Shown here piece after piece: positions 585-47,904 of a stretch of 64,000 nt of DNA. Every line of letters begins with the position of its first letter. Within the stretch, counting starts at the first letter, position 1. The notes under the pieces are model-generated. The model saw nothing but the letters and a program-made list of their open reading frames with translations, was not told the DNA's origin and made no database searches. The translations under genes and the position numbers were made by a program. Source of the DNA: Chloroflexota bacterium (GTDB lineage: Bacteria > Chloroflexota > Anaerolineae > Anaerolineales > UBA11579); assembly GCA_018662365.1 (NCBI GenBank), contig JABJGH010000035.1, forward strand, positions 23,040 through 87,039. The letters are read 5' to 3'.

Positions 585-1940
585 ATGAAAATATCTACAA
601 TTATCTTAGCTGCTGGGAAAGGCACCCGAATGAGATCAAAATATCCCAAAGTTCTCCACCCAATTGCCGGGGAACCTATGGCTTGGCATATCATTCAGGC
701 AGTAAAAGAGTTTTCTGATGAACTCCCAACCGTCGTGGTTGGATACAAAGCCGAAGAGGTAAAAGATAGCTTGGGGGATAACGCTCATTTTGTCCTCCAA
801 AACGAACAAAAAGGAACTGCCCATGCGGTACAACAAGCTGAGGATTTACTAAAAGGAAATTCCGACATAGTAGTCGTCCTCCTTGGCGATATGCCCCTAA
901 TCAAAGGTCAGACGCTAAAAGCATTAACCGAAACCCAAAAGAATAATACTGGGCCGGTGAGTATGCTTACCGTATTATCGGAAAACCCTCGAGGATTTGG
1001 CCGAATTTCACGAAATAAAAAAGGGCAAGTGGAAGCTATTATTGAGGAAGCAGATTGCACTTCTGAACAGCTCAAAATTAACGAATTAAATGTGAGCGTC
1101 TATTGTTTCCAGGCTGATTGGCTGTGGGATAACCTGGAAAATATTCCCGTCTCATCGAAAGGCGAATTTTATCTCACTGATATTATCAAAGTCGCTACGG
1201 ATAAAGGATTAAATGTACATGCTGAAGCAATCTCTGATCCTCAAGAAGCGATTGGGATTAATTCACGAGTCCACCTAAGCGAAGCTGAGAGAATTATGCG
1301 CAGGAGGATTAATCAGACTTGGATGGAAGCAGGTGTCAGTATTATTGACCCACAAACTACGTATATACACACAAACGTCAAAATTGGGCAGGACACGACC
1401 ATTTACCCAAACACCCATTTGCAGGGAAATACAATTATTGGTGAAGATTGCGAAATTGGCCCCAACACAACCATTAATAACACCTGCATTGGTAATAACT
1501 GTAAAATAATTTCTTCCGTTTTAGAATATGCTAAAGTTGAAAACCATGTGGATATTGGTCCCTTTGGCCATTTACGAAAAGGTGCCCATTTGGCAGACGG
1601 CGTACATATGGGCAATTATGGAGAAATTAAAAATTCTTATATCGGACCTGGCACAAAAATAGGTCATTTCTCATACTTGGGAGATACGACGACTGGAAAA
1701 AATGTAAATATTGGCGCTGGAACGATTACCGCCAATTACGATGGTGTGAATAAAAATAAAACCGAAATTGCAGATGATGTCTTTATTGGTAGCGACACAA
1801 TGCTAATTGCCCCAGTTAAGATTGGGAAAGGGGCTCGCACCGGTGCGGGTTCTGTTGTCAATAAAGACGTTGGTGAAGGAGAGGTTGTGGTGGGAATGCC
1901 CGCTAGAGCCATTCGAAGAAGAAAAGACAATAGTGAATAG
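585..1940 (+). CDS. glmU: Bifunctional UDP-N-acetylglucosamine pyrophosphorylase / glucosamine-1-phosphate N-acetyltransferase
   Basis: N-terminal ILAAGKGTRM nucleotidyltransferase motif. The C-terminal half has long left-handed beta-helix hexapeptide repeats. 451 aa is the typical GlmU length. Confidence 0.95.
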   Translation: MKISTIILAAGKGTRMRSKYPKVLHPIAGEPMAWHIIQAVKEFSDELPTVVVGYKAEEVKDSLGDNAHFVLQNEQKGTAHAVQQAEDLLKGNSDIVVVLLGDMPLIKGQTLKALTETQKNNTGPVSMLTVLSENPRGFGRISRNKKGQVEAIIEEADCTSEQLKINELNVSVYCFQADWLWDNLENIPVSSKGEFYLTDIIKVATDKGLNVHAEAISDPQEAIGINSRVHLSEAERIMRRRINQTWMEAGVSIIDPQTTYIHTNVKIGQDTTIYPNTHLQGNTIIGEDCEIGPNTTINNTCIGNNCKIISSVLEYAKVENHVDIGPFGHLRKGAHLADGVHMGNYGEIKNSYIGPGTKIGHFSYLGDTTTGKNVNIGAGTITANYDGVNKNKTEIADDVFIGSDTMLIAPVKIGKGARTGAGSVVNKDVGEGEVVVGMPARAIRRRKDNSE

Positions 1941-3641: not shown

Positions 3642-4373
3642 ATGCGCGCTTTAGTAATCACTGACATACATGGGAATAGTGTTGCGTTAGAAACAGTTCT
3701 AAACCATGTCAAAGACGAAATTGATGCTGTTTGGTGTCTGGGGGACGTGGTGGGCTATGGCCCAAATCCAAACGAATGCATTTCGCTCCTGAAAGAACAA
3801 AATAATTTGATCTGCTTATTAGGGAATCACGATGCTGCTGCGGCAAAAGACATGGATATAAGTAGTTTTAATACCGAAGCACGGCAATCCGTGGAGTGGA
3901 CAAAAAACGAACTCAGTAAAGAAAACTTGTCTTTCCTCCAAAATCTTCCTGAAACTGCAGTGATTGATCAGGTAACTTTGGCCCATGGCAGCCCTCGCCA
4001 ACCCGTATTTGAATATCTTTTAGATTCCCAAGTAGCCCAAGAAAATTTTGGTTTTTTCGATACAAATTATTGTTTTGTCGGACATACACACCTCCCTGTG
4101 CATTTTTATCTTGATCCTGCATCAAAAATTACATCCTTGAACATTCCTGAAGTTGACCGAATAAACTCAATTCTCTCAAGGTCAATACTCAATCCAGGGT
4201 CTATTGGACAACCACGCGACAGAGATCCCCGATCTTCTTTTGCTATCTTCGATTCGGAAGAAAAAAGTTGGGATTATCGGAGAATTGAATATAATATTAA
4301 GAAAACCCAAAAAAGAATGAGTTCATATAAAATGCCGGAACGCCAAATTGTCCGGTTGAGCAGTGGGTGGTAG
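3642..4373 (+). CDS. Metallophosphoesterase (calcineurin-like, YfcE/MJ0936-type)
   Basis: DIHGN, GDVVGYGP, GNHD and GHTH motifs in the canonical order. Confidence 0.85.
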   Translation: MRALVITDIHGNSVALETVLNHVKDEIDAVWCLGDVVGYGPNPNECISLLKEQNNLICLLGNHDAAAAKDMDISSFNTEARQSVEWTKNELSKENLSFLQNLPETAVIDQVTLAHGSPRQPVFEYLLDSQVAQENFGFFDTNYCFVGHTHLPVHFYLDPASKITSLNIPEVDRINSILSRSILNPGSIGQPRDRDPRSSFAIFDSEEKSWDYRRIEYNIKKTQKRMSSYKMPERQIVRLSSGW

Positions 4374-4540: not shown

Positions 4541-5683
4541 ATGGCTATTACGAAAAAGAAAATATTGTTTTTAGGCACAAAAATGCAACAAGCGGGTGCC
4601 CAAAAAATGCAGCTAATACAATCGGCGTGGTTCCACAAAAAAGGCCATGAGGTTATTTCAGTCTTTTTATACGATAACGAAAATTTATCTGAGGATTGGA
4701 AATCCAGATATCCCTTTAAGGTAATTAACCTTGACGTTTGGTCTCTACAGGGAAATATTTTTGGCAAGCTTCTTAAATTCTTGCTTGCTTTACCCCGTTT
4801 TTATCGATTTCTAGTTCAAAACAATTTTGATATTATTGAAACATTCACACATGACAGCAACCTAATTGGAATCCCTCTTGGATATCTTGCGGGAATACCC
4901 GTACGAATTCCCGCTCATCAAGGGGATATTGAAGATCGAATTTTTTTTTGGAAATGGCTCCATGGAAGAATGGTAAATAGCCCTCTTTCAACAAAGCTTG
5001 TTGTAGTTTCTAATCGAGTTAAAGAAAATGCAATAGTCCTTGAAAAAGTGCGTCCTGAAAAAATTGAAGTAATCCTAAATGCAATTCAGACCAAAGAACC
5101 CCTTACCGATAAATATCAGGCTAGAAAGTCATTAGGATGGTCCGAAAAAGCTAATATCCTGGTCTCGGTCGGAAGATTATCTGTTCAAAAGGGACATAAG
5201 TATTTAATTGATGCGATGCCCTCTGTTTTAGAAAAATATCCGAACACCCTACTATATATTATTGGAGACGGAAAACTCTGCAATTCATTATCAACTCAAA
5301 TAGAAAACTTAGGTCTTCAAAATAGCATAAAACTATTAGGCGTGAGGAGTGATGTTTTTAAGATTCTTAGAGCCAGCGATATATTCATCATGCCGTCGCT
5401 TTGGGAGGGATTGCCTGTAGCACTTTTGGAGGCAATGTTGATGGAATGCCCAATAATAATTTCGGACGTTGAGGGAATTGATGATGTACTTACCCATAAC
5501 GAAAATGGACTAATTACTCCCTTAAAGGACGTGGCTATTCTTTCAAAATCTATTCTTTATTTAATGGAAAATAAGATTATCCGAAATGAATTAGGAATAA
5601 AGGCTAGAGAACATATTTTAGAAAATTTTTCTGAAGATGAAATGTGCAAGCAATATGAAGAGGTGTTTTTTGATTTAGCTTAA
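4541..5683 (+). CDS. Glycosyltransferase family 4 (GT-B, Glycos_transf_1)
   Basis: C-terminal signature GRLSVQKG ... PSLWEGLPVALLEAM ... P(I/V)I.SD, in 380 aa. Confidence 0.85.
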   Translation: MAITKKKILFLGTKMQQAGAQKMQLIQSAWFHKKGHEVISVFLYDNENLSEDWKSRYPFKVINLDVWSLQGNIFGKLLKFLLALPRFYRFLVQNNFDIIETFTHDSNLIGIPLGYLAGIPVRIPAHQGDIEDRIFFWKWLHGRMVNSPLSTKLVVVSNRVKENAIVLEKVRPEKIEVILNAIQTKEPLTDKYQARKSLGWSEKANILVSVGRLSVQKGHKYLIDAMPSVLEKYPNTLLYIIGDGKLCNSLSTQIENLGLQNSIKLLGVRSDVFKILRASDIFIMPSLWEGLPVALLEAMLMECPIIISDVEGIDDVLTHNENGLITPLKDVAILSKSILYLMENKIIRNELGIKAREHILENFSEDEMCKQYEEVFFDLA

Positions 5684-15666: not shown

Positions 15667-18141
15667 TTATTCTTTCAACGCTGGTTCTTTCTTCTTTTTC
15701 TTAGATTTTACCTTTACGTTAAAAGTCACTTCGCCTTCCTCGTTTACATCCACGATCACCGTGTCCCCCGCCACGAATTCACCTTTCAACAAACGAATGG
15801 AAAGAGGGCTTTCAACGCTCTTTTGCAGCACTCTTTTCATCGGGCGAGCACCAAAAGCAGGATCATAACCTTCTTTGGCAACCCATTCTCTGGCTTTATC
15901 GGTCAATTCCACTTGTAACCCCACATCTGCCAATCGTTCACCGATCTCTTTCATTTGTAATCCAACGATCTCGGTCATTTCCTCCACAGATAATTGTGAG
16001 AAGGTAATGATTTCATCGATTCGGTTTAGAAATTCTGGGCGGAAGGTATCTTTCAGGGCTTTCTCAATCTTTTTATGAGATTCTTTAATCTCTGCATCCC
16101 CTTCGGTTTGCAAGAATCCAAGAGAGCCAGCCTGGCGCACAAATTCGGTACCCAAGTTGCTGGTCATGATCAAAACTGTATTACGGAAATTGACTGTGCG
16201 GCCTTGTCCATCGGTCAAGCGTCCATCATCCAATATTTGCAATAATGAATTCCAAACTTCAGGATGTGCTTTTTCGATCTCATCAAAAAGAATCACTCGG
16301 TAGGGTCGCTGCCGAACGGCTTCGGTTAACTGACCACCTTCTTCATAACCCACATACCCAGGAGGGGCACCAAACAATCGAGACACAGCATGCTGTTCAC
16401 GATATTCACTCATATCGATCCGCACCAAGGCATCTTCGTCATCAAACATAAATTCGGCCAATGCTTTGGCTAATTCGGTCTTACCCACGCCCGATGGACC
16501 AATAAAAATAAAGGAACCGATCGGTCGCTTAGGATCTTTCAACCCCGAGCGAGATCTTCTAATGGCATCCGATACAGCGGAAATCGCTGCAGATTGTCCA
16601 ACGATTCGTTCCTGGATTCGGTTTTCCATGGTTAGTAATTTTTCGGCTTCGGTTTCCATCATTTGGCTCACCGGAATACCTGTCCATTGAGCCACGACTT
16701 CAGCGACATCATTGACGCCAACGATCTCGTCGAGCTCATGTTCTTCTTCCCATTTTCGCCGTTCTGCGTTGTAGTCTTCTTCCATCTGAAGTTTTTTAGT
16801 ACGCATTATTGCTGCTCGTTCATAATCTCTTGAAGTACTCGCTTGTTCTTCTTCAGCCTGTAATCTATCAAGTTCGGTTTTTAATTCTTTCAACTCTTTT
16901 GGCAGTGAGAATAAAGCGACACGTAATTTTGCGGCCGCTTCATCCATCAGATCGATCGCCTTATCGGGCAATCTGCGGTCCGGCAAATAGCGCACTGAAA
17001 ACTTTACGGCCGCTTCTAAGCTCTCATCCGAAATACTCACCTTATGATGGGCTTCGTAGCGATCTCGCAATCCGTGGAGCATCAAGATCGTGTCTTCCTC
17101 ACTTGGCTCTTCAACGAACACCGGTGCGAAACGTCGCTCCAATGCGGAATCCTTTTCAATATATTTTTGATATTCGTCGAGGGTGGTTGCCCCAATCGCT
17201 TGCAGTTCACCCCGTGCCAATGCAGGTTTAAGCATATTAGAAGCATCCATTGCCCCTTGCGCTGCCCCTGCACCTACAACCGTATGCAACTCATCAATGA
17301 ACAAGATGATCTCACCCTGCGCTCGTTGAACTTCTTCAATTGTTGTTTTCAAACGTTCTTCGAACTCACCTCTAAAACGAGAACCAGCGATCATCCCACT
17401 CAAATCCAGGGAAAGCACTCGCTTGCCATTCAAGATTTCGGGTACATCATTGGTATCGATCTTTTGGGCTAATCCTTCCACAATTGCGGTTTTACCCACA
17501 CCAGCTTCACCAATCAACACCGGGTTATTTTTCGTTCGTCGGGAAAGGATCTGGATCACTCGCAAGATCTCTGAATCACGCCCGATCACCGGGTCCAACT
17601 TCCCTTCCCGTGCCATCAAGGTTAGATCACGCGAATATTTTTCTAGAGTTTTATATTTGGTTTCTGCTTGAGGATCGGTAACTCTTTGTCCTCCGCGCAC
17701 TTGCTGCACAGCGTCCAAAGCACGTTCTTTTGTCACCCCTGCGCCTTCCAATAAACGAGCTGCGGGGGTGCTGCGTTCACTCAAAATAGCTAAGAAGATA
17801 TGCTCGGTAGAAATATATTCATCCTTCAATTTATTGGCTTCTTCATTAGCGAGGTCAATTATTCGTTTAACCCGCGGGGTGATAAAGATCTGCCCAGCGC
17901 CACCGCCAAAAATGTTGGCTTTTGGGCTAGTTTTCAAAATATAGTCTAAGCGCTCTGTAAGCGCCTCAGGCTCTACGGTTAAAATTTCTAATAGCTGGGA
18001 GATAATCCCTTGGGGTTGTTCGATCAATGCCAGTAACATATGCTCGGTATCGATCTGATTATGCCCATATCGTTGAATGATCTCGGCAGCTCTTTGGGCG
18101 GCTTCTTGGGCTCGCTCTGTAAAACGGTCAAATCTCATCAT
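15667..18141 (-). CDS. clpC: ClpC-type AAA+ unfoldase (two NBDs, Clp_N repeats, UVR-like middle domain)
   Basis: Duplicated Clp N-domain repeats. Walker A motifs GEAGVGKT and GPSGVGKT. The short middle domain has a UVR-like DYERAAIMR. An LGF tripeptide lies in the position of the ClpP-docking loop. 824 aa. Confidence 0.9.
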
Positions 18142-30210: not shown

Positions 30211-31002
30211 TTACCCCATCTCCGCCCGTACGGTTTCATATAAGCTCTCTGCTTTCAGATCTGCCAAGGAGTAACATGGCGAACCCAAATGATTAGCCAA
30301 TCCTTGCGCTAAACCCTGATCAAAAGCCGCGTGCTCCATATTGATCACCACACTGCGAATATTTTCTTCAGCGATCTGCTCTGCCAATTGATGCGCTTCT
30401 TTTTGTGGGGAGATTTCACCCGACATCGAAACATTTCCAGCACCATCCGTCAACAAGATCATCAAAGGCAATACATCAGGATGGGTTAATTTTTCTCGTT
30501 TGATCACTTCAAGCGTAAGGAATAAACCAGCCGAAAGAGGGGTTTTCCCTCCCACCGGAATATCTTGCAAGGCGCGCTGTGCCAATTGCACCGAGTTTGT
30601 CGGAGAAAGCACCAAGTTCGCCCGGTCTTTTTGGAAAACCACCAAACCTACGCGGTCACGCCGTTGATAAGCATCCGTCAATAATGAAAGGATCGCCCCC
30701 TTGGTCGCAGCCATGCGTTCCGCCACCGCCATCGACCACGATGCATCCACCACAAATATCACCAGGTTAGCGGTTAACCGAACCCTCACCTTGCGTTGAA
30801 GGTCTTGTTTCTTGATCGCAAAGGCCAGATTCTTTTCTTTGCGTTCCTCTTCCCGCCGTTGCTGGTAGGGCGCGGCTGCCCGAATCGTCGCATCAAAAGC
30901 AATATCATCTGTCCGTCCCATCGCTGGTCGCGACTGAATATACCGTCCGCGCTTCCGTTCCGTGCGCGTCCGTGAACGTCGCCCGCTTTGTTTACGGGTC
31001 AT
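30211..31002 (-). CDS. VWA domain protein equivalent to the C-terminal integrin-I/VWA module of BchD/ChlD (possibly expressed only as a frameshift fusion; see findings)
   Basis: MIDAS motif DASWSM, followed by GKTPL... and LLTDGAGN. The frame is open with no start codon for 57 codons upstream of the ATG at 31002. Confidence 0.85.
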   Translation of the reverse strand: MTRKQSGRRSRTRTERKRGRYIQSRPAMGRTDDIAFDATIRAAAPYQQRREEERKEKNLAFAIKKQDLQRKVRVRLTANLVIFVVDASWSMAVAERMAATKGAILSLLTDAYQRRDRVGLVVFQKDRANLVLSPTNSVQLAQRALQDIPVGGKTPLSAGLFLTLEVIKREKLTHPDVLPLMILLTDGAGNVSMSGEISPQKEAHQLAEQIAEENIRSVVINMEHAAFDQGLAQGLANHLGSPCYSLADLKAESLYETVRAEMG

Positions 31003-31148
31003 TTTATCTAATTGGTTGTCTAGCTTGCGCGGAGCAAATGTCTCTCCAGATTGAACTTTTTGTCCCCCATCCCACCAGTAAGCATCGCCACTATCGAAAA
31101 CCTCTTGAGGCCCCGGTTCTGCTGGGGCCTGCTCAGGTGCATTTTCTG

Positions 31149-32267
31149 TTATTCGACTATCTGCGCTTTTTTTTTATCTGCCGATTCTTTATCACTCGCA
31201 TCTTGATCTTGATCTTCTGCGGTCCCCTCGCCTTGCATTTCCCCTTGCAGGTTTTCGATCTGCTCATGCAGTTGCTCCATCGTCATTTCAGACTGATGGA
31301 ACGGACCACGTTTAATGCGGTGAGGTAAGGCCAATTCTGCTGCAATCGCAATATCCAGATCATTGATCGATTTTCGTCCTTCAAATGCGGCATGGGCTCT
31401 GGCAGCTTTCAAGATCACCAGGTCAGCACGATGTCCATCTACATTTAAAGAGGCTGTCAAAGAGGCAATCGAGATCAGGTCTCTACTGCTATACTGCACC
31501 TCAGCAACCAAATCTCGAGCTTTTGAGATCTTATCTGCAAGGTCTTTCTCTTTTGGTGCCCACTCTTTATAGAAGGCTTCGGCATCTGCTTCAAAGCCCA
31601 AATTGCGCTCCATGATCGCCACCCGGTCTCTTGCATCCCGAATACCACGGATATCCACAGAAAGAGCAAAACGATCCAATAACTGGGGTCGCAAATCACC
31701 TTCTTCAGGATTCATCGTGCCGATCAAAATAAATCGTGCAGGATGCGTGAAGGAAATTCCCTCCCGTTCCACAATATTGATACCCATTGCCGCAGAGTCA
31801 AGCAGCACGTCTACCACATGGTCATCTAACAAATTTACTTCATCAATATAAAGCAATCCGCGGTTTGCTGAAGCCAAGACACCTGGATCAAAATGCTTTT
31901 TCCCTTCCGTGATTGCTTTTTCAATATCTAAAGAACCAACAACTCGGTCTTCGGTCGCACTCACGGGCAGGTCAATAAAGGGCACTTTTCTTTCTTCCAC
32001 TTTAAGCTCGCCATTCTCAGAGTCGTTCTCTTTCGCCCAATCAGACCAATTATTAGGATCATTGGGGTCATCGTTGAAGGGTGAGCCTAAAATGACATCA
32101 ATATCTGGAAGCAGGGCAGCCAACGCCCTGGCGGCAGTAGATTTTGCAGTTCCACGTTCCCCGCGGATCAATACACCACCGATCCTTGGGTCAATGGCAT
32201 TAAGCACCAAAGAACGCACCATGCGTTTCTGTCCGACGATTGCTGTGAATGGAAAAATTGCTCGCAT
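31149..32267 (-). CDS. BchI/ChlI-like AAA+ ATPase (class I chelatase small subunit family)
   Basis: [10 protein letters not shown]...[21 protein letters not shown]-terminus, Walker [10 protein letters not shown], and PQLLDRF. Confidence 0.9.
31167..31175 (-). promoter_or_regulatory. A9 homopolymer: candidate -1 frameshift (slippery A_AAA_AAA) site joining the ChlI-like and VWA reading frames
   Basis: On the minus strand the sequence is GAT AAA AAA AAA GCG, 5 codons before the ChlI-like stop. The -1 frame has a TAA formed at the very start of the run, then stays open to the VWA ORF. Confidence 0.5.
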
Positions 32268-32484: not shown

Positions 32485-34077
32485 ATGTCGGACATGAATC
32501 AAAACGACGCCCAAAACGGGCAGAACCTAACGGAAGAAGATCAATTGGAGGCAGAAAACGAAGAACTTTCAATGGAAGAGTTGTTAGCGCAGAGTGATTT
32601 TAGCCTCAACATGCCAAAGCAAGGCCAAGTTCGCCAAGGAATGATTGCGAGTGTTTCTGATGATGAAATTCTTGTAAGCATCGGCACCAAGTCTGAAGGT
32701 GTCATTCCTGGCCGTGAGCTCAGCCAGCTTAGTGATGAAGCTAGAGCCGCCCTTGTTGTTGGCGAAGAGATTACCGTCTTTGTTGTTAGCCCTGAAAGCC
32801 GCCAAGGAACCTTGATGCTTTCGATCCTACGGGCAAAAGAAGAAGATGATTGGAACCAAGCCGAGGAACTATTAGCTTCCAAAGAAGGCTATGAAAGTAC
32901 AATCTCTGGTTTTAACAAAGGTGGACTAATCGTCAATGTTGGATATCTGCGTGGCTTCGTACCTGCATCTCAGGTTAGCCTGACTCGTCGTATGAGCTAT
33001 AAAGGGGATACTCCTGAACAAAGATGGAGCGGAATGGTTGGAGAACCCATTGTGGTTCGCGTGATCGAAGTCGATCGCCAACGCCGCCGCCTAATCATTT
33101 CCGAACGGGCCGCTGCACAAGAATCCCGTGAAACTTTGAAAGAACGCCTGTTAGAAGGTTTGGAAGAAGGCGAGACCCGCAAAGGTCGCGTCACCAGCCT
33201 TGCAGAATTTGGCGCCTTCGTAAATATCAACGGGGCTGATGGCCTCGTCCATCTTTCTGAAATTTCCTGGGAAAGGATTGATCATCCCAGCGAAGTCCTA
33301 GAAGTTGGCCAAGAAGTAGACGTAAAGATCATCAGTATCGATCGAGAACGAAAACGAATCGGTCTCTCCATTCGCCAATTACAGGAAGATCCCTGGAAAG
33401 ATTATTTAGACCAATATGAAGTCGGTCAACTGATCGAAGGCGAAATTACCCGGCTTACAAAATTTGGTGCCTTTGCCAAAATTGATGAAAACCTCGAAGG
33501 CTTGATTCATGTTTCTGAATTAAGTGACCGCCGCATCGAACACCCCAAAGAGGTCTTGGATGTGAGTGACAAAGTTACACTTAGAATTATTAAAGTAGAT
33601 ACCTCACGCCGCCGAATTGGCCTGAGCTTACGCAAAGTCGAATCCATGAAATATTCTGATATGGATTGGGAACTTGCTCTCTCTGAGATCACTGACGAAA
33701 ATGGCGTAGAAAAAGTTGCTGAAGAAGCTGTAGAAGAGGCAACCGCTGAAGTCGAAGAAGCTGTTGAAGAAGCCGTAGAGGTTGTCGAAGAGGTAGTCGC
33801 TGAAGTTAAAGAGGTAGTCGAAGAAGCTGAAGAAGCCACGGAAGAGGCAGTTGTCGAAGAGGCAGCCGCCGAAGTTGAAGAAGCTGTCGAAGAAGCTGAA
33901 GAGGTTGTTGAAGAAGCAGTCGAAGAAGCAGTCGAAGAAGTCGTCGAAGAAGCAACCACCGAAGTTGAAGAAGTTGTCGAAGAAGCTGAAGAGGTTGTTG
34001 AAGAGGCAGCCGCTGAAGTTGAAGAAGCCACGGAAGAAGCAGCCGCTGAAGTCGTTGAAGAAGCGAGCGAAGACTAA
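32485..34077 (+). CDS. rpsA: 30S ribosomal protein S1 with long acidic E/A/V-rich C-terminal extension
   Basis: Four recognisable S1 domains (G.V....GAFV......GL(I/V)H.SE(I/L)S). GGAG RBS. The C-terminal ~125 aa is low-complexity (AEEAVEEA)n. Confidence 0.9.
   Translation: MSDMNQNDAQNGQNLTEEDQLEAENEELSMEELLAQSDFSLNMPKQGQVRQGMIASVSDDEILVSIGTKSEGVIPGRELSQLSDEARAALVVGEEITVFVVSPESRQGTLMLSILRAKEEDDWNQAEELLASKEGYESTISGFNKGGLIVNVGYLRGFVPASQVSLTRRMSYKGDTPEQRWSGMVGEPIVVRVIEVDRQRRRLIISERAAAQESRETLKERLLEGLEEGETRKGRVTSLAEFGAFVNINGADGLVHLSEISWERIDHPSEVLEVGQEVDVKIISIDRERKRIGLSIRQLQEDPWKDYLDQYEVGQLIEGEITRLTKFGAFAKIDENLEGLIHVSELSDRRIEHPKEVLDVSDKVTLRIIKVDTSRRRIGLSLRKVESMKYSDMDWELALSEITDENGVEKVAEEAVEEATAEVEEAVEEAVEVVEEVVAEVKEVVEEAEEATEEAVVEEAAAEVEEAVEEAEEVVEEAVEEAVEEVVEEATTEVEEVVEEAEEVVEEAAAEVEEATEEAAAEVVEEASED
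33700..34070 (+). repeat. In-frame GAA/GAG/GC(N)/GT(N) tandem-repeat region encoding the S1 acidic tail
   Basis: Near-identical ~54-nt blocks occur 90 nt apart at 33868-33921 and 33958-34011, among shorter GAAGAAGC(T/A)GT units. Confidence 0.8.
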
Positions 34078-34101
34078 GAAGTACTGTGATTTATAATTCA
34101 A

Positions 34102-34131
34102 AGGTCTATCGCTAGCGATAGACCTTTTTTT
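34102..34131 (+). terminator. Rho-independent terminator of rpsA
   Basis: AGGTCTATCGC-TA-GCGATAGACCT perfect stem followed by T7. Confidence 0.75.
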
Positions 34132-34302
34132 ATTCACCGGAATTTGGGATATCTAAGAAATTTGTAAGCATTACAGTTCAAACATGAATCTTTGGTAAAA
34201 TTGTGTTTTAATAAATATATAGTATTTAATAAGGAAATAATTTTCGACCAAAAATGGTCTTATTTCTACAGATTGGTACGTATCAAAGTTTAGGAGGCCG
34301 CA

Positions 34303-36807
34303 TTGTCTGGTCTAGAAAAGTTTACACAAAGAGCAAGGCGAGTATTGAGCTTAGCCCATCAAGAGGCCGAGCAATTACGCCATAATTATATTGGCACCGA
34401 ACACCTGCTCCTCGGGTTGATCCGCGAAGAAGGTGGCGTTGCCGCAAGAGTTTTACGCGAACTAGGCTTGGAGACCTCCAGAATTACGGAGATCGTCAAA
34501 CGCCTTTCTCAACCGGGTGAAGAAGTAACCGAAAACATCGACCTTTCCCCTGGAACCCAAGAAGTTTTGCAATATGCTATTGAGGAAGCCGAAAAACTGG
34601 GCAACAGCTATGTCAGCACCGAGCATTTATTGCTTGGCCTAATTCGATATACTGATGGCATCGCCCTCAACGTCCTGCGAAAATTAGGGGTCACTCCCGA
34701 ACAGATTCGCCGACAAACCCGAAGAATTCTTCAATCCGGAGCTTCGTCCAGCACCCGCAGTCCACAAAAATCTCGACAAGGTGCCCGAAGTCGTTCTGCA
34801 AAACCTGACCCCAAATCCCCCATGATCGACCAACTAGCCACCGACCTAACATCATTAGCTGAGGAAGGTAAATTGGACCCAGTAATTGGCCGCCAGATGG
34901 AGATCGAACGTGTGATCCAGATTCTGGCCCGCCGTACCAAAAACAACCCGGCACTGATGGGTGAACCGGGTGTAGGTAAGACCGCCATTGTCGAAGGTCT
35001 TGCTCAACGCATCATCGAGGGTGACGTACCCGCCCTCCTTTTGGGCAAACAAGTGCTCCGATTAGATGTCGGCTCTCTAGTTGCTGGAACAATGTACCGT
35101 GGTCAGTTTGAAGAACGACTTAAAAAAGTAATTGACGAATTAAAAATCTCAGGCGCGATCTTATTTATCGATGAGGTCCATATGCTCGTAGGTGCTGGCG
35201 CTGCCGGCTCCTCAGTCGATGCCGCCAATATTCTAAAGCCCGCCCTTTCACGTGGTGAATTACAGGTTATCGGCGCCACCACCCTTGATGAATACCGAAA
35301 ACATATTGAAAGCGACGCCGCCCTCGAACGACGGTTCCAGCCAATCTTGGTTGAAGAGCCCACCGTCGAAGAAACCATTGATATCCTCAAAGGGGTGCGA
35401 AGTGCTTACGAAGACCATCACCGATTAAATATTACCGATGAAGCACTCGAAGCCGCCGCGCAACTTTCTTCCCGTTATGTAACCGAGCGCTTTTTGCCCG
35501 ATAAAGCAATCGACTTGATCGACGAATCTGGCTCCCGCGTCAGAATGTACAAAAGCCCTGCAGCAGATAAAGCCAAAGAATTAACCCTTGAGCTCAAAGA
35601 GCTGAAGGCGAAACAAGTTGCAAAATCAGAAGAAGAAAATACCGAAGAACTTGACGCATTAAACTTGCGCCAAGAGGAAGTTGAAGCCGAACTCGAAAAA
35701 CTTCGCACCAGTTGGGATCGAGAAACTAGCCCATCCGTGACCGAAGAAGACATCGCTGAACTGGTCGCCATGTGGACCGGCATTCCTGTAATGCAGATTG
35801 CTCAAGAAGAAACAGATCGATTACTCCATATGGAAGAAGACCTCGGTAAAGTCATTGTCGGTCAAGAAGAAGCCATCGTCGCCATTTCTAAAGCAGTCAG
35901 ACGAGCCCGTGCTGGCATGAAAGACCCCGCCCGTCCGATTGGCTCCTTTGTATTCCTCGGCCCCACCGGTGTGGGTAAAACAGAGCTAACCAAAGCCCTC
36001 GCCAAACTAATGTTTGGCAGTGAAGAGGCCCTCATCCAATTAGATATGTCTGAATTTATGGAACGTCATAGCGTCAGTCGTCTAGTGGGTGCCCCTCCCG
36101 GCTATGTCGGTTACGAAGAAGCTGGTCAACTTACTGAAGCCCTTCGCCGCCGCCCCTATTCAATCGTCGTCTTTGATGAGATCGAAAAGGCGCATCCCGA
36201 AGCCCATAATATGCTCTTGCAGATCATGGAAGAAGGACATCTCTCCGATGCCCGCGGTCGCAAAGTAGATTTCCGCAATGCCATCATCGTCATGACCTCC
36301 AACGTCGGTGCCGACATGATCATGCGCCAAGGCTCCCTCGGTTTCAACCTCAAAGTGGAGGAAGAGGTCGAAGAAAAAATAGCCTATCGAGACATGCGCA
36401 AGAAATTAACCGAATCACTGCGCAGGGTATTTCGCCCTGAATTCATCAACCGTGTCGATTCCGTGATCGTCTTCCGAGCGCTCACACCCGCAAATATCCA
36501 AGAGATCGTTTCTTTGGAATTGAAAAAGGTGGCTGAACGCTTGGTTGAGCACGACATTCGCCTCCAACCCACCGATGCTGCTGTTGAGTTATTAGCCGAG
36601 CTTGGCTACGACCGAGAATATGGCGCTCGCCCCCTCAAACGCATCATTCAACAAAAGGTTGAAGATGCCCTCTCCGATGCCCTCCTGGGCGGAGAAGTCG
36701 AAGATGGCGATCTGGTCATTCTTGACATTGAAATGGGAGAAGATGCCCCTGACATTATCATCAAACGTGGCGAATCCGAAGAAGAAGAGCTCGGAACCCC
36801 GGCGTAA
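34303..36807 (+). CDS. clpC: ClpC-type AAA+ unfoldase (second paralog)
   Basis: Clp_N repeats, Walker A GEPGVGKT and GPTGVGKT, and an LGF loop. TTG start with an AGGAGG RBS. 834 aa. The middle domain lacks the UVR-like motif seen in the other paralog. Confidence 0.9.
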
Positions 36808-47814: not shown

Positions 47815-47904
47815 AATTCCCTCAAAAAAAAACGATCTTTCGCATTTAATCAGGGTGCTTTATCCCTTTGCACCCTTCCAAAAGACCCATACCTTTGTGA
47901 TACT

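Follow-up and report, generated by a model that had tools for sequence, protein, structure and literature searches.

A candidate fs-chlD gene of the Anaerolineales with a conserved poly-A junction between its two reading frames

Two reading frames at one A9 run

The stretch of 64,000 nucleotides (nt) analyzed here, referred to below as the window, comes from a Chloroflexota bacterium of the Anaerolineales (UBA11579; assembly GCA_018662365.1, contig JABJGH010000035.1, positions 23,040–87,039). Its minus strand carries a candidate fs-chlD gene, in which a ChlI-like open reading frame (ORF1) and a VWA-domain ORF meet at a run of nine A's (Table 1). ORF1 starts with the ATG at 32267, encodes 372 amino acids (aa) and ends in ...GAT AAA AAA AAA GCG CAG ATA GTC GAA TAA, so that its stop codon (31151..31149) stands five codons past the run. 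The A9 is in phase 0 with ORF1 (GAU AAA AAA AAA GCG in mRNA sense) and includes an in-phase A_AAA_AAA heptamer of the X_XXY_YYZ type at 31173..31167. Read in the -1 frame, GAT contributes its T and the run its first two A's to a TAA; this stop and that of ORF1 delimit the interval in which a shift could be productive, 31173..31152.

Past this TAA, the -1 frame is open through to 30211. The linker at its beginning, 57 codons ending in NQLDK and including the motif WWDGG, is devoid of ATG, GTG and TTG and runs into the ATG at 31002, the first start-type codon of the frame, from which gene callers annotate a VWA ORF of 263 aa. No Shine–Dalgarno (SD)-like sequence was found before ATG 31002, and no promoter-like site in the linker region 31003..31180 of the minus strand. 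A one-base backward shift within the A9 would give a long product of 685 aa, encoded by 32267..31167 followed by 31167..30211, base 31167 being decoded a second time or the mRNA containing an additional A. A preliminary description, made from the letters of the window alone, had reported the end of ORF1, the A9, the -1-frame TAA, the 57 startless codons and the ATG at 31002, and all of these statements and their coordinates hold.

Table 1. Features of the candidate fs-chlD locus in the window, and A-runs of in-frame orthologs
Feature	Position	Strand	Basis or run length
Whole fs-chlD gene, predicted long product of 685 aa	30211..32267	-	Fused product against TIGR02442
ORF1, zero-frame product, predicted short (small-subunit) form	31149..32267	-	ORF and profile matches
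A9 slip site (candidate)	31167..31175	-	Sequence; conserved in relatives
TAA closing the -1 frame	31174..31176	-	Translation of 31176..30211 opens with a stop
Startless linker, -1 frame, 57 codons	31003..31173	-	No start codon; conserved WWxGG
Annotated VWA ORF, C-terminal part of the predicted long product	30211..31002	-	Pfam, TIGR02442, MIDAS
In-frame ortholog L083	run 4089–4098		A10
In-frame orthologs L084–86 (7 contigs)	run L084:4084–4092		A9
In-frame orthologs L087, L089, L090, L091	gene offset about 1083–1090		A9
In-frame ortholog L088	gene offset about 1083–1090		A10

The two frames encode the two halves of a ChlD-type protein. ORF1 matches the Pfam domains AAA_lid_2, Mg_chelatase and AAA_5 and covers positions 1–356 of TIGR02442 ('putative cobaltochelatase') with 497 bits; against the BchI-ChlI model TIGR02030 it scores 418 bits, under the model cutoff of 466.95 bits. 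Its closest solved structure is the cyanobacterial ChlI 8osf (E 2e-103), and its Walker A, Walker B, sensor 1, arginine finger and sensor 2 are intact and conserved. The downstream frame matches the Pfam domains VWA_2 and VWA, positions 383–640 of TIGR02442 (268 bits) and the BchD integrin-I domain 2x31, and carries an AAPxQ motif and an intact MIDAS (DASWS...T...D), both conserved. When the frames are fused, the 685-aa product covers positions 1–640 of the 641 of TIGR02442 with 771.2 bits (E 8e-232); the preliminary description had anticipated a product of about 680 aa with BchD/ChlD architecture.

The fused product was also compared with uninterrupted proteins. The 120 among the best matches listed are 61–74% identical to it over 93–100% of its length (mostly 100%), a ranking that is biased, since only full-length ORFs can cover the whole query. 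These homologs measure 636–736 aa, mostly 680–690, and their sources call them 'putative cobaltochelatase' or 'magnesium chelatase subunit D'. As a detail of the ATPase module, the Walker A of ORF1 reads GERGTAKST (residues 36–44; window 32159–32133), with Ala in place of the usual Gly before Lys. This form is found in 57 of 61 aligned sequences, comprising the fused window product and 60 clade homologs, and GERGTGKST in the other four.

The split arrangement is reproducible within the species. The exact 372-aa ORF1 occurs on 53 contigs of independent assemblies held by NCBI, JGI, ENA and Logan (109 index blocks) and, since it requires the A9 run length, the split state recurs on all 53. An ENA contig of 489.6 kb is identical to the window across 5119 nt, A9 included, and the more than 90% identical relative P0122 shows the same split end. 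No fused allele of this species was found in a collection of 5.8 billion protein sequences, in which the best fused match is 74% identical. Public records hold two proteins in NCBI and JGI annotation, MBT3240549.1 ('AAA domain-containing protein') and MBT3240550.1 ('VWA domain-containing protein'); the latter begins at the internal ATG, and the 57 conserved codons with their near-invariant WWxGG are cut off. Annotated VWA starts in related strains are arbitrary, giving 309 aa for P0127 and 281 aa for P0129.

Conservation of the junction in related species

To assess the variability of the junction, one genome per species was scanned, which yielded 80 related loci (L001 onwards), with frame and run length counted in 79. 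All but two of the 80 are titled Chloroflexota, mostly Anaerolineales, while L047 and L075 were binned to other phyla; the best related locus shows 79–84% protein identity. The frame relation was scored by separate tblastn of the N- and C-terminal parts. The VWA part lies in the -1 frame in 68 loci, in the +1 frame in five and in the same frame in six, and each of the six closest species genomes (L001–L006) shows the -1 arrangement. Of the 11 exceptions, eight (L007, L009, L010, L020, L044, L048, L059, L064) are metagenome-assembled genomes (MAGs) of the MFD series, some of them with an intervening stop. We take the MFD-series MAGs to be long-read (Nanopore) assemblies, in which homopolymer errors at the A-run are likely, and they are therefore not to be counted as biological variants.

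The length of the run is strictly maintained. It is A9 or A10 in 75 of the 79 loci, the rest having A7, A8, A11 and A14. For further counts, the 68 related -1 loci were combined with the window gene (n = 69). At least nine A's stand at the junction in 67 of these 69 genes, against 12.6 expected from their own Lys codon usage. Outside the junction, these genes encode Lys by AAA in 53% and by AAG in 47% of cases, and only one other run of at least eight A's occurs in their 136 kb. In an alignment of 40 junction DNA sequences, with a mean column identity of 49%, the A-run is the sole invariant block and its flanks are unconserved. Across the relatives the run occupies all three phases, and the GAT-A9 arrangement, with TAA closing the -1 frame, recurs in L004–L006, L015, L031 and L041. 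Judged from these alignments and counts, the A-run is under selection at the nucleotide level, the pattern being far beyond chance.

The linker is conserved as protein. Within 180 nt past the run, the 69 genes contain no stop in the -1 frame, whereas the two remaining frames have 131 and 221. In 40 of 66 related loci, start-type codons are absent from the stretch that separates the -1-frame stop from WWxGG. The WWxGG motif is near-invariant (W99, W100, G102 and G103 are invariant in the alignment), and EPGPQ is conserved in the linker as well. A motif so conserved means that the linker must be translated. Being stop-free, conserved and startless, the linker is reachable only from ORF1, which is the signature of programmed recoding. 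The preliminary description had suggested checking orthologs for the slippery run, the upstream -1-frame stop and the startless linker ORF; the comparison shows conservation of run, -1 arrangement and startless linker in 68 of the 79 species genomes.

The run is also kept by orthologs in which both parts lie in one frame. Among the 120 in-frame homologs, 119 have Lys at the linker site (KK, KKK or KKN), and seven of seven in-frame Anaerolineae orthologs from different assemblies, checked at the DNA level, possess A9 or A10 (Table 1). In these seven, a +1-frame stop follows 1–6 codons past the Lys run and a -1-frame stop 5–15 codons past it. In such genes, the long form would be the product of standard decoding and the short form that of slippage, a reversed polarity that dnaX of E. 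coli and T. thermophilus also has.

A different type of site was seen in Thermoflexus hugenholtzii, a high-GC thermophile. Its in-frame ortholog (L081:4086–4092) has only A7, as CC A_AAA_AAG, with GGAGGGAGGG a few bases upstream and a -1-frame stop 13 codons on. This site resembles the ribosomal frameshift site of E. coli dnaX, where -1 programmed ribosomal frameshifting (PRF) takes place on A_AAA_AAG, and is unlike the A9 type.

Proposed recoding and its alternatives

Based on this comparison, the window gene is very probably an fs-chlD gene of the TIGR02442 'putative cobaltochelatase' family with programmed two-product recoding, by whichever mechanism. Standard decoding would stop five codons past the A9 and give the 372-aa ChlI-like AAA+ ATPase, while a fraction of expression events would enter the -1 frame within the run and give a 685-aa ChlD-like protein, composed of the same AAA+ module, an acidic/Pro-rich linker and the VWA/MIDAS domain. 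In the version we favor, RNA polymerase would make most of the shifts by slipping on the nine-base homopolymer, so that some of the mRNAs would carry an additional A, as described for Thermus thermophilus dnaX, and ribosomal -1 slippage on the in-phase A_AAA_AAA may contribute. By analogy with the I/D pairs of Mg- and Co-chelatases (CobS/CobT in the latter), we infer that the short and long products would form a mixed AAA+ complex. The preliminary description had proposed a programmed -1 shift yielding ChlI-like and ChlD-like subunits, made by ribosomal slippage on A_AAA_AAA; the shift itself is supported on comparative grounds, and the ribosomal slip is not established, no stimulatory structure having been found.

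That RNA polymerase makes most of the shift we regard as an even call. It is favored over ribosomal -1 frameshifting by the conserved length of at least nine A's combined with the absence of a conserved RNA structure. A ribosome needs only seven bases in phase, yet 67 of the 69 -1 genes retain two or three A's more than that inside a fast-evolving linker, and the run is found in all three phases. In bacteria, efficient slippage occurs with runs of nine A's or T's, the hybrid in RNA polymerase being 9–10 bp, and T. thermophilus dnaX combines slippage on a nine-base run with nearby stops in both other frames (PMC5009743). Chelatase fs-gene cassettes from other genera, for which production of both the short and the long protein has been shown in E. 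coli, gave 10%, 40% and 63% frameshifting there for A7, A9 and A11, respectively (PMC3711429); this rise with run length is suggestive of polymerase slippage, in an assay that does not separate the mechanisms.

Polymerase slippage is also favored by the early closure of both frames other than that of the VWA part: the zero frame ends within three codons of the run in 91% of loci, and the third frame at a median of six codons past it, versus 24 in out-of-frame controls. In the window, mRNAs with two or three additional A's would likewise be read to short ends, KKKKRR-stop and KKKK AQIVE-stop.

RNA folding revealed no excess stability on either side of the run, with a mean z of 0.0 for the 60 nt downstream and -0.06 for the 45–60 nt upstream over the 69 loci, and RNAalifold predicted 0 pairs on 40 junctions. 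When 90 nt past the run were folded, the only hairpin of the window began 37 nt after it; its z of -1.43 is not significant, and it overlaps the EPGPQ codons. A stimulatory hairpin or pseudoknot 5–9 nt past the heptamer, the downstream element that the preliminary description had suggested looking for, was rejected on the folding of the window and the 69 loci and on RNAalifold. An upstream hairpin, as in the RNA-polymerase slippage of some insertion sequence (IS) elements, was likewise rejected, the 45–60 nt concerned having no excess stability.

The same two products could arise through ribosomal -1 PRF, that is, a tandem tRNA-Lys slip on A_AAA_AAA, a route that we consider somewhat less likely than not. 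Several observations speak for it and thereby weigh against a polymerase-made shift. Since an A9 in any phase always holds an in-phase A_AAA_AAA or A_AAA_AAG, the ribosomal route is always open: the window and each of the related loci have an in-phase X_XXY_YYZ heptamer, and 38 of 65 loci have a run that terminates in phase as A_AAA_AAG, the classic slippery heptamer. The zero frame closes no more than three codons past the run in 91% of loci, and a nearby stop can favor slippage; in L001–L003, a stop codon directly follows the run and could itself stimulate the ribosomal slip. SD-like 4-mers are about three times enriched 4–20 nt upstream (24 of 69 loci, or 35%, versus 12% in controls), as measured against a control that is not composition-matched and in a Glu/Gly-rich linker. 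The A7 of Thermoflexus, with GGAGGGAGGG upstream, fits the E. coli dnaX pattern. The family has been described as PRF, with the A_AAA_AAR site under purifying selection (PMC5009743; PMC9227772), and its describers call the process translational frameshifting (PMC9227772). Two further points count against the proposal as a whole: the fused product falls 8 bits short of the curated TIGR02442 cutoff of 779.45, and the production of two proteins is itself a prediction.

Against the ribosomal route stand the lack of a conserved or unusually stable downstream structure at any spacing in the sequences folded, the A's retained beyond the heptamer in 67 of 69 genes, and the efficiency of the chelatase cassettes, whose climb from A7 to A11 is characteristic of a slipping polymerase. 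Early closure is also seen in the third frame, into which a ribosome slipping by -1 would never move.

Explanations that involve no programmed recoding appear unlikely even when taken together. The one that survives best posits two separate genes, with the VWA protein made from ATG 31002 or by re-initiation, or else a decaying pseudogene of a fused chlD, and we rate it as very unlikely. The locus is annotated as two proteins, and separate pairs of a ChlI gene and a VWA gene do exist in other lineages (PMC9227772). Yet the 57 codons before ATG 31002 are conserved and stop-free in the 69 loci and startless in the window and in 40 of 66 relatives, with neither an SD before the ATG nor a promoter-like site in the linker. 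Nor would the run, the two frames and every catalytic and MIDAS motif have persisted through 68 species in a pseudogene.

DNA-level phase variation, in which an A gained or lost at replication would toggle the long protein in subpopulations, is extremely unlikely. Related species do show both -1 and in-frame states, each with the A-run (in-frame in L083, L084–86, L087–L091, L008 and L012), and poly-A is slippery for DNA polymerase as well (PMC3711429). However, the split is the only state seen in this species, on 53 contigs and with no fused protein more than 74% identical. Free switching would fill all three states, whereas the states across species are strongly skewed, with 68 loci in the -1 state versus only two or three in-frame and one +1 among short-read assemblies. 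The product is moreover cytoplasmic and housekeeping-like, with no surface or restriction function.

Finally, a homopolymer sequencing or assembly error splitting an in-frame chlD can be practically dismissed: several MFD MAGs among the relatives have odd frames at the homopolymer and the best 120 protein matches are uninterrupted, but the identical split ORF1 recurs on 53 contigs and in P0122, L001–L006 are all -1, and the in-frame matches belong to other species at no more than 74% identity. Both phase variation and sequencing error had been kept as alternatives in the preliminary description, and both are disfavored by these comparisons.

Genomic context, known systems and significance

A two-component system and an FG-GAP lipoprotein are encoded near the gene. 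A glyoxalase-fold gene is located 25 nt downstream of it, and on its upstream side lie S1 and ClpC genes in divergent orientation. Only these two are conserved, S1 holding this divergent upstream place in 43 of 64 related loci; the downstream genes vary, and synteny gives no hint of function. No CobN-sized ORF exists in the 64-kb window, where the largest ORFs, of 834 and 824 aa, are both Clp-type, and no CobN-type gene was found within 4 kb of the gene in the 80 related loci; the preliminary description had likewise noted that the vicinity holds no CobN/BchH-type large subunit. Of the ORFs in the flanks of related loci, six reach at least 975 aa; they encode GGDEF sensors, SecA, a BTAD/NB-ARC regulator and one protein without a Pfam match, none matching a CobN family. 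A search by tblastn gave no second ChlI-like gene in the window.

Some other features of the window can be noted. The S1-like gene (32485–34077, plus strand) has an acidic repetitive C-terminal tail of about 130 residues (VEEAVEEA...), whose low complexity produces long spurious antisense ORFs at 33507..34031 and 33628..34137. Two Clp_N/AAA_2 chaperone genes of ClpC/ClpB type, at 15667–18141 (minus strand) and 34303–36807 (plus strand), are located no more than 20 kb apart. The only other runs of nine in the window are a T9 at 4941–4949 and an A9 at 47824–47832. The T9 falls in frame within an ORF whose translation, on inspection alone, resembles a glycosyltransferase (4541..5683; ...RIFFW...); it is long enough for transcriptional slippage, and nothing suggests its use. 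The A9 lies between ORFs.

The locus belongs to a known type of gene. In 2013, Antonov et al. identified the Mg-chelatase fs-gene cluster and put it to the test in Nucleic Acids Research (PMC3711429), and fs-chlD-type genes were reviewed in 2016 by Atkins et al. (PMC5009743). Kuznetsov et al. (2022), from the group of Antonov, listed fs-chlD in Chloroflexi of the Anaerolineae group, namely Brevefilum fermentans, Anaerolinea thermophila, Ornatilinea, Longilinea and Levilinea, and noted that B. fermentans has neither cobN/chlH nor a B12 or chlorophyll pathway, calling the function unknown (PMC9227772). The window species is not among these named Anaerolineae. The Pseudomonas and Delftia fs-chlD genes are described with an A_AAA_AAR heptamer and a potential downstream stem-loop (PMC5009743), whereas the window gene and its 68 relatives have a strict A9–A10 and no conserved structure.

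In its layout, the window gene matches published chelatase fs-genes: a ChlI-like and a VWA ORF overlap at a poly-A, the latter being read in the -1 frame; fusing them yields a ChlD-type protein of full length; and one gene would supply small and medium subunits. The comparison supports the fit to the model of Antonov that the preliminary description had put forward. The fs-chlD work was reportedly developed further by Antonov in Molecular Biology and Evolution in 2020.

The dnaX genes of T. thermophilus and E. coli offer a second parallel, in which an AAA+ gene makes short and long isoforms that share the N-terminal ATPase module, the slip occurs on a Lys-coding A-run, and stops stand close by in the non-productive frames. 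Both layouts, with slippage leading to the long or to the short form, occur there, as they would here in the -1 genes and the in-frame orthologs. Unlike dnaX, which encodes a clamp loader, the present gene belongs to the unrelated chelatase I/D clade of AAA+ proteins, and its extension is a VWA/MIDAS domain.

Among the class I chelatases, BchI/ChlI with BchD/ChlD and CobS with CobT share the same plan, with an AAA+ small subunit and a medium subunit consisting of AAA+, an acidic/Pro-rich linker and an integrin-I/VWA domain with MIDAS. Unlike in Mg-chelatase and CobS/CobT, both subunits would come from one gene here, and, unlike in BchD/ChlD and CobT, the long form necessarily retains a catalytically intact AAA+ module. 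Unlike in class I chelatases, no large porphyrin-binding subunit (ChlH/BchH/CobN, PF02514) is encoded in the 64-kb window or adjoining the 80 orthologs, so chelatase activity is not implied. By analogy, the gene would work like the I/D pair of class I chelatases, while membership among functional Mg- or Co-chelatases is not claimable. With slightly less than even confidence, we suggest that the Anaerolineae evolved an RNA-polymerase-made chlD switch independently of dnaX and along similar lines, in which A9–A10, kept in the -1 genes of 68 species and the window as well as in the in-frame orthologs, would serve as an isoform generator regardless of layout, and that the machine may not be a chelatase, because no CobN/ChlH partner lies nearby.

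Together, these results make the locus a solid further example of fs-chlD, a phenomenon already described in this clade, and open no new category. What may be new is the strict length of at least nine A's without conserved RNA structure, which favors RNA-polymerase slippage, and the retention of the A-run in in-frame orthologs, where out-of-frame stops are close by and the arrangement is the reverse one, similar to that of dnaX. For annotation, the gene is at present split into an 'AAA domain' protein and a truncated 'VWA domain' protein, and the same fault affects at least 68 related species. For the biology of the clade, the finding sharpens two questions: whether transcriptional or translational slippage acts where A9–A10 is strict and no RNA stimulator is present, and what role the ChlI/ChlD-type AAA+/VWA pair, and the partner of its VWA domain, play with no large subunit nearby.

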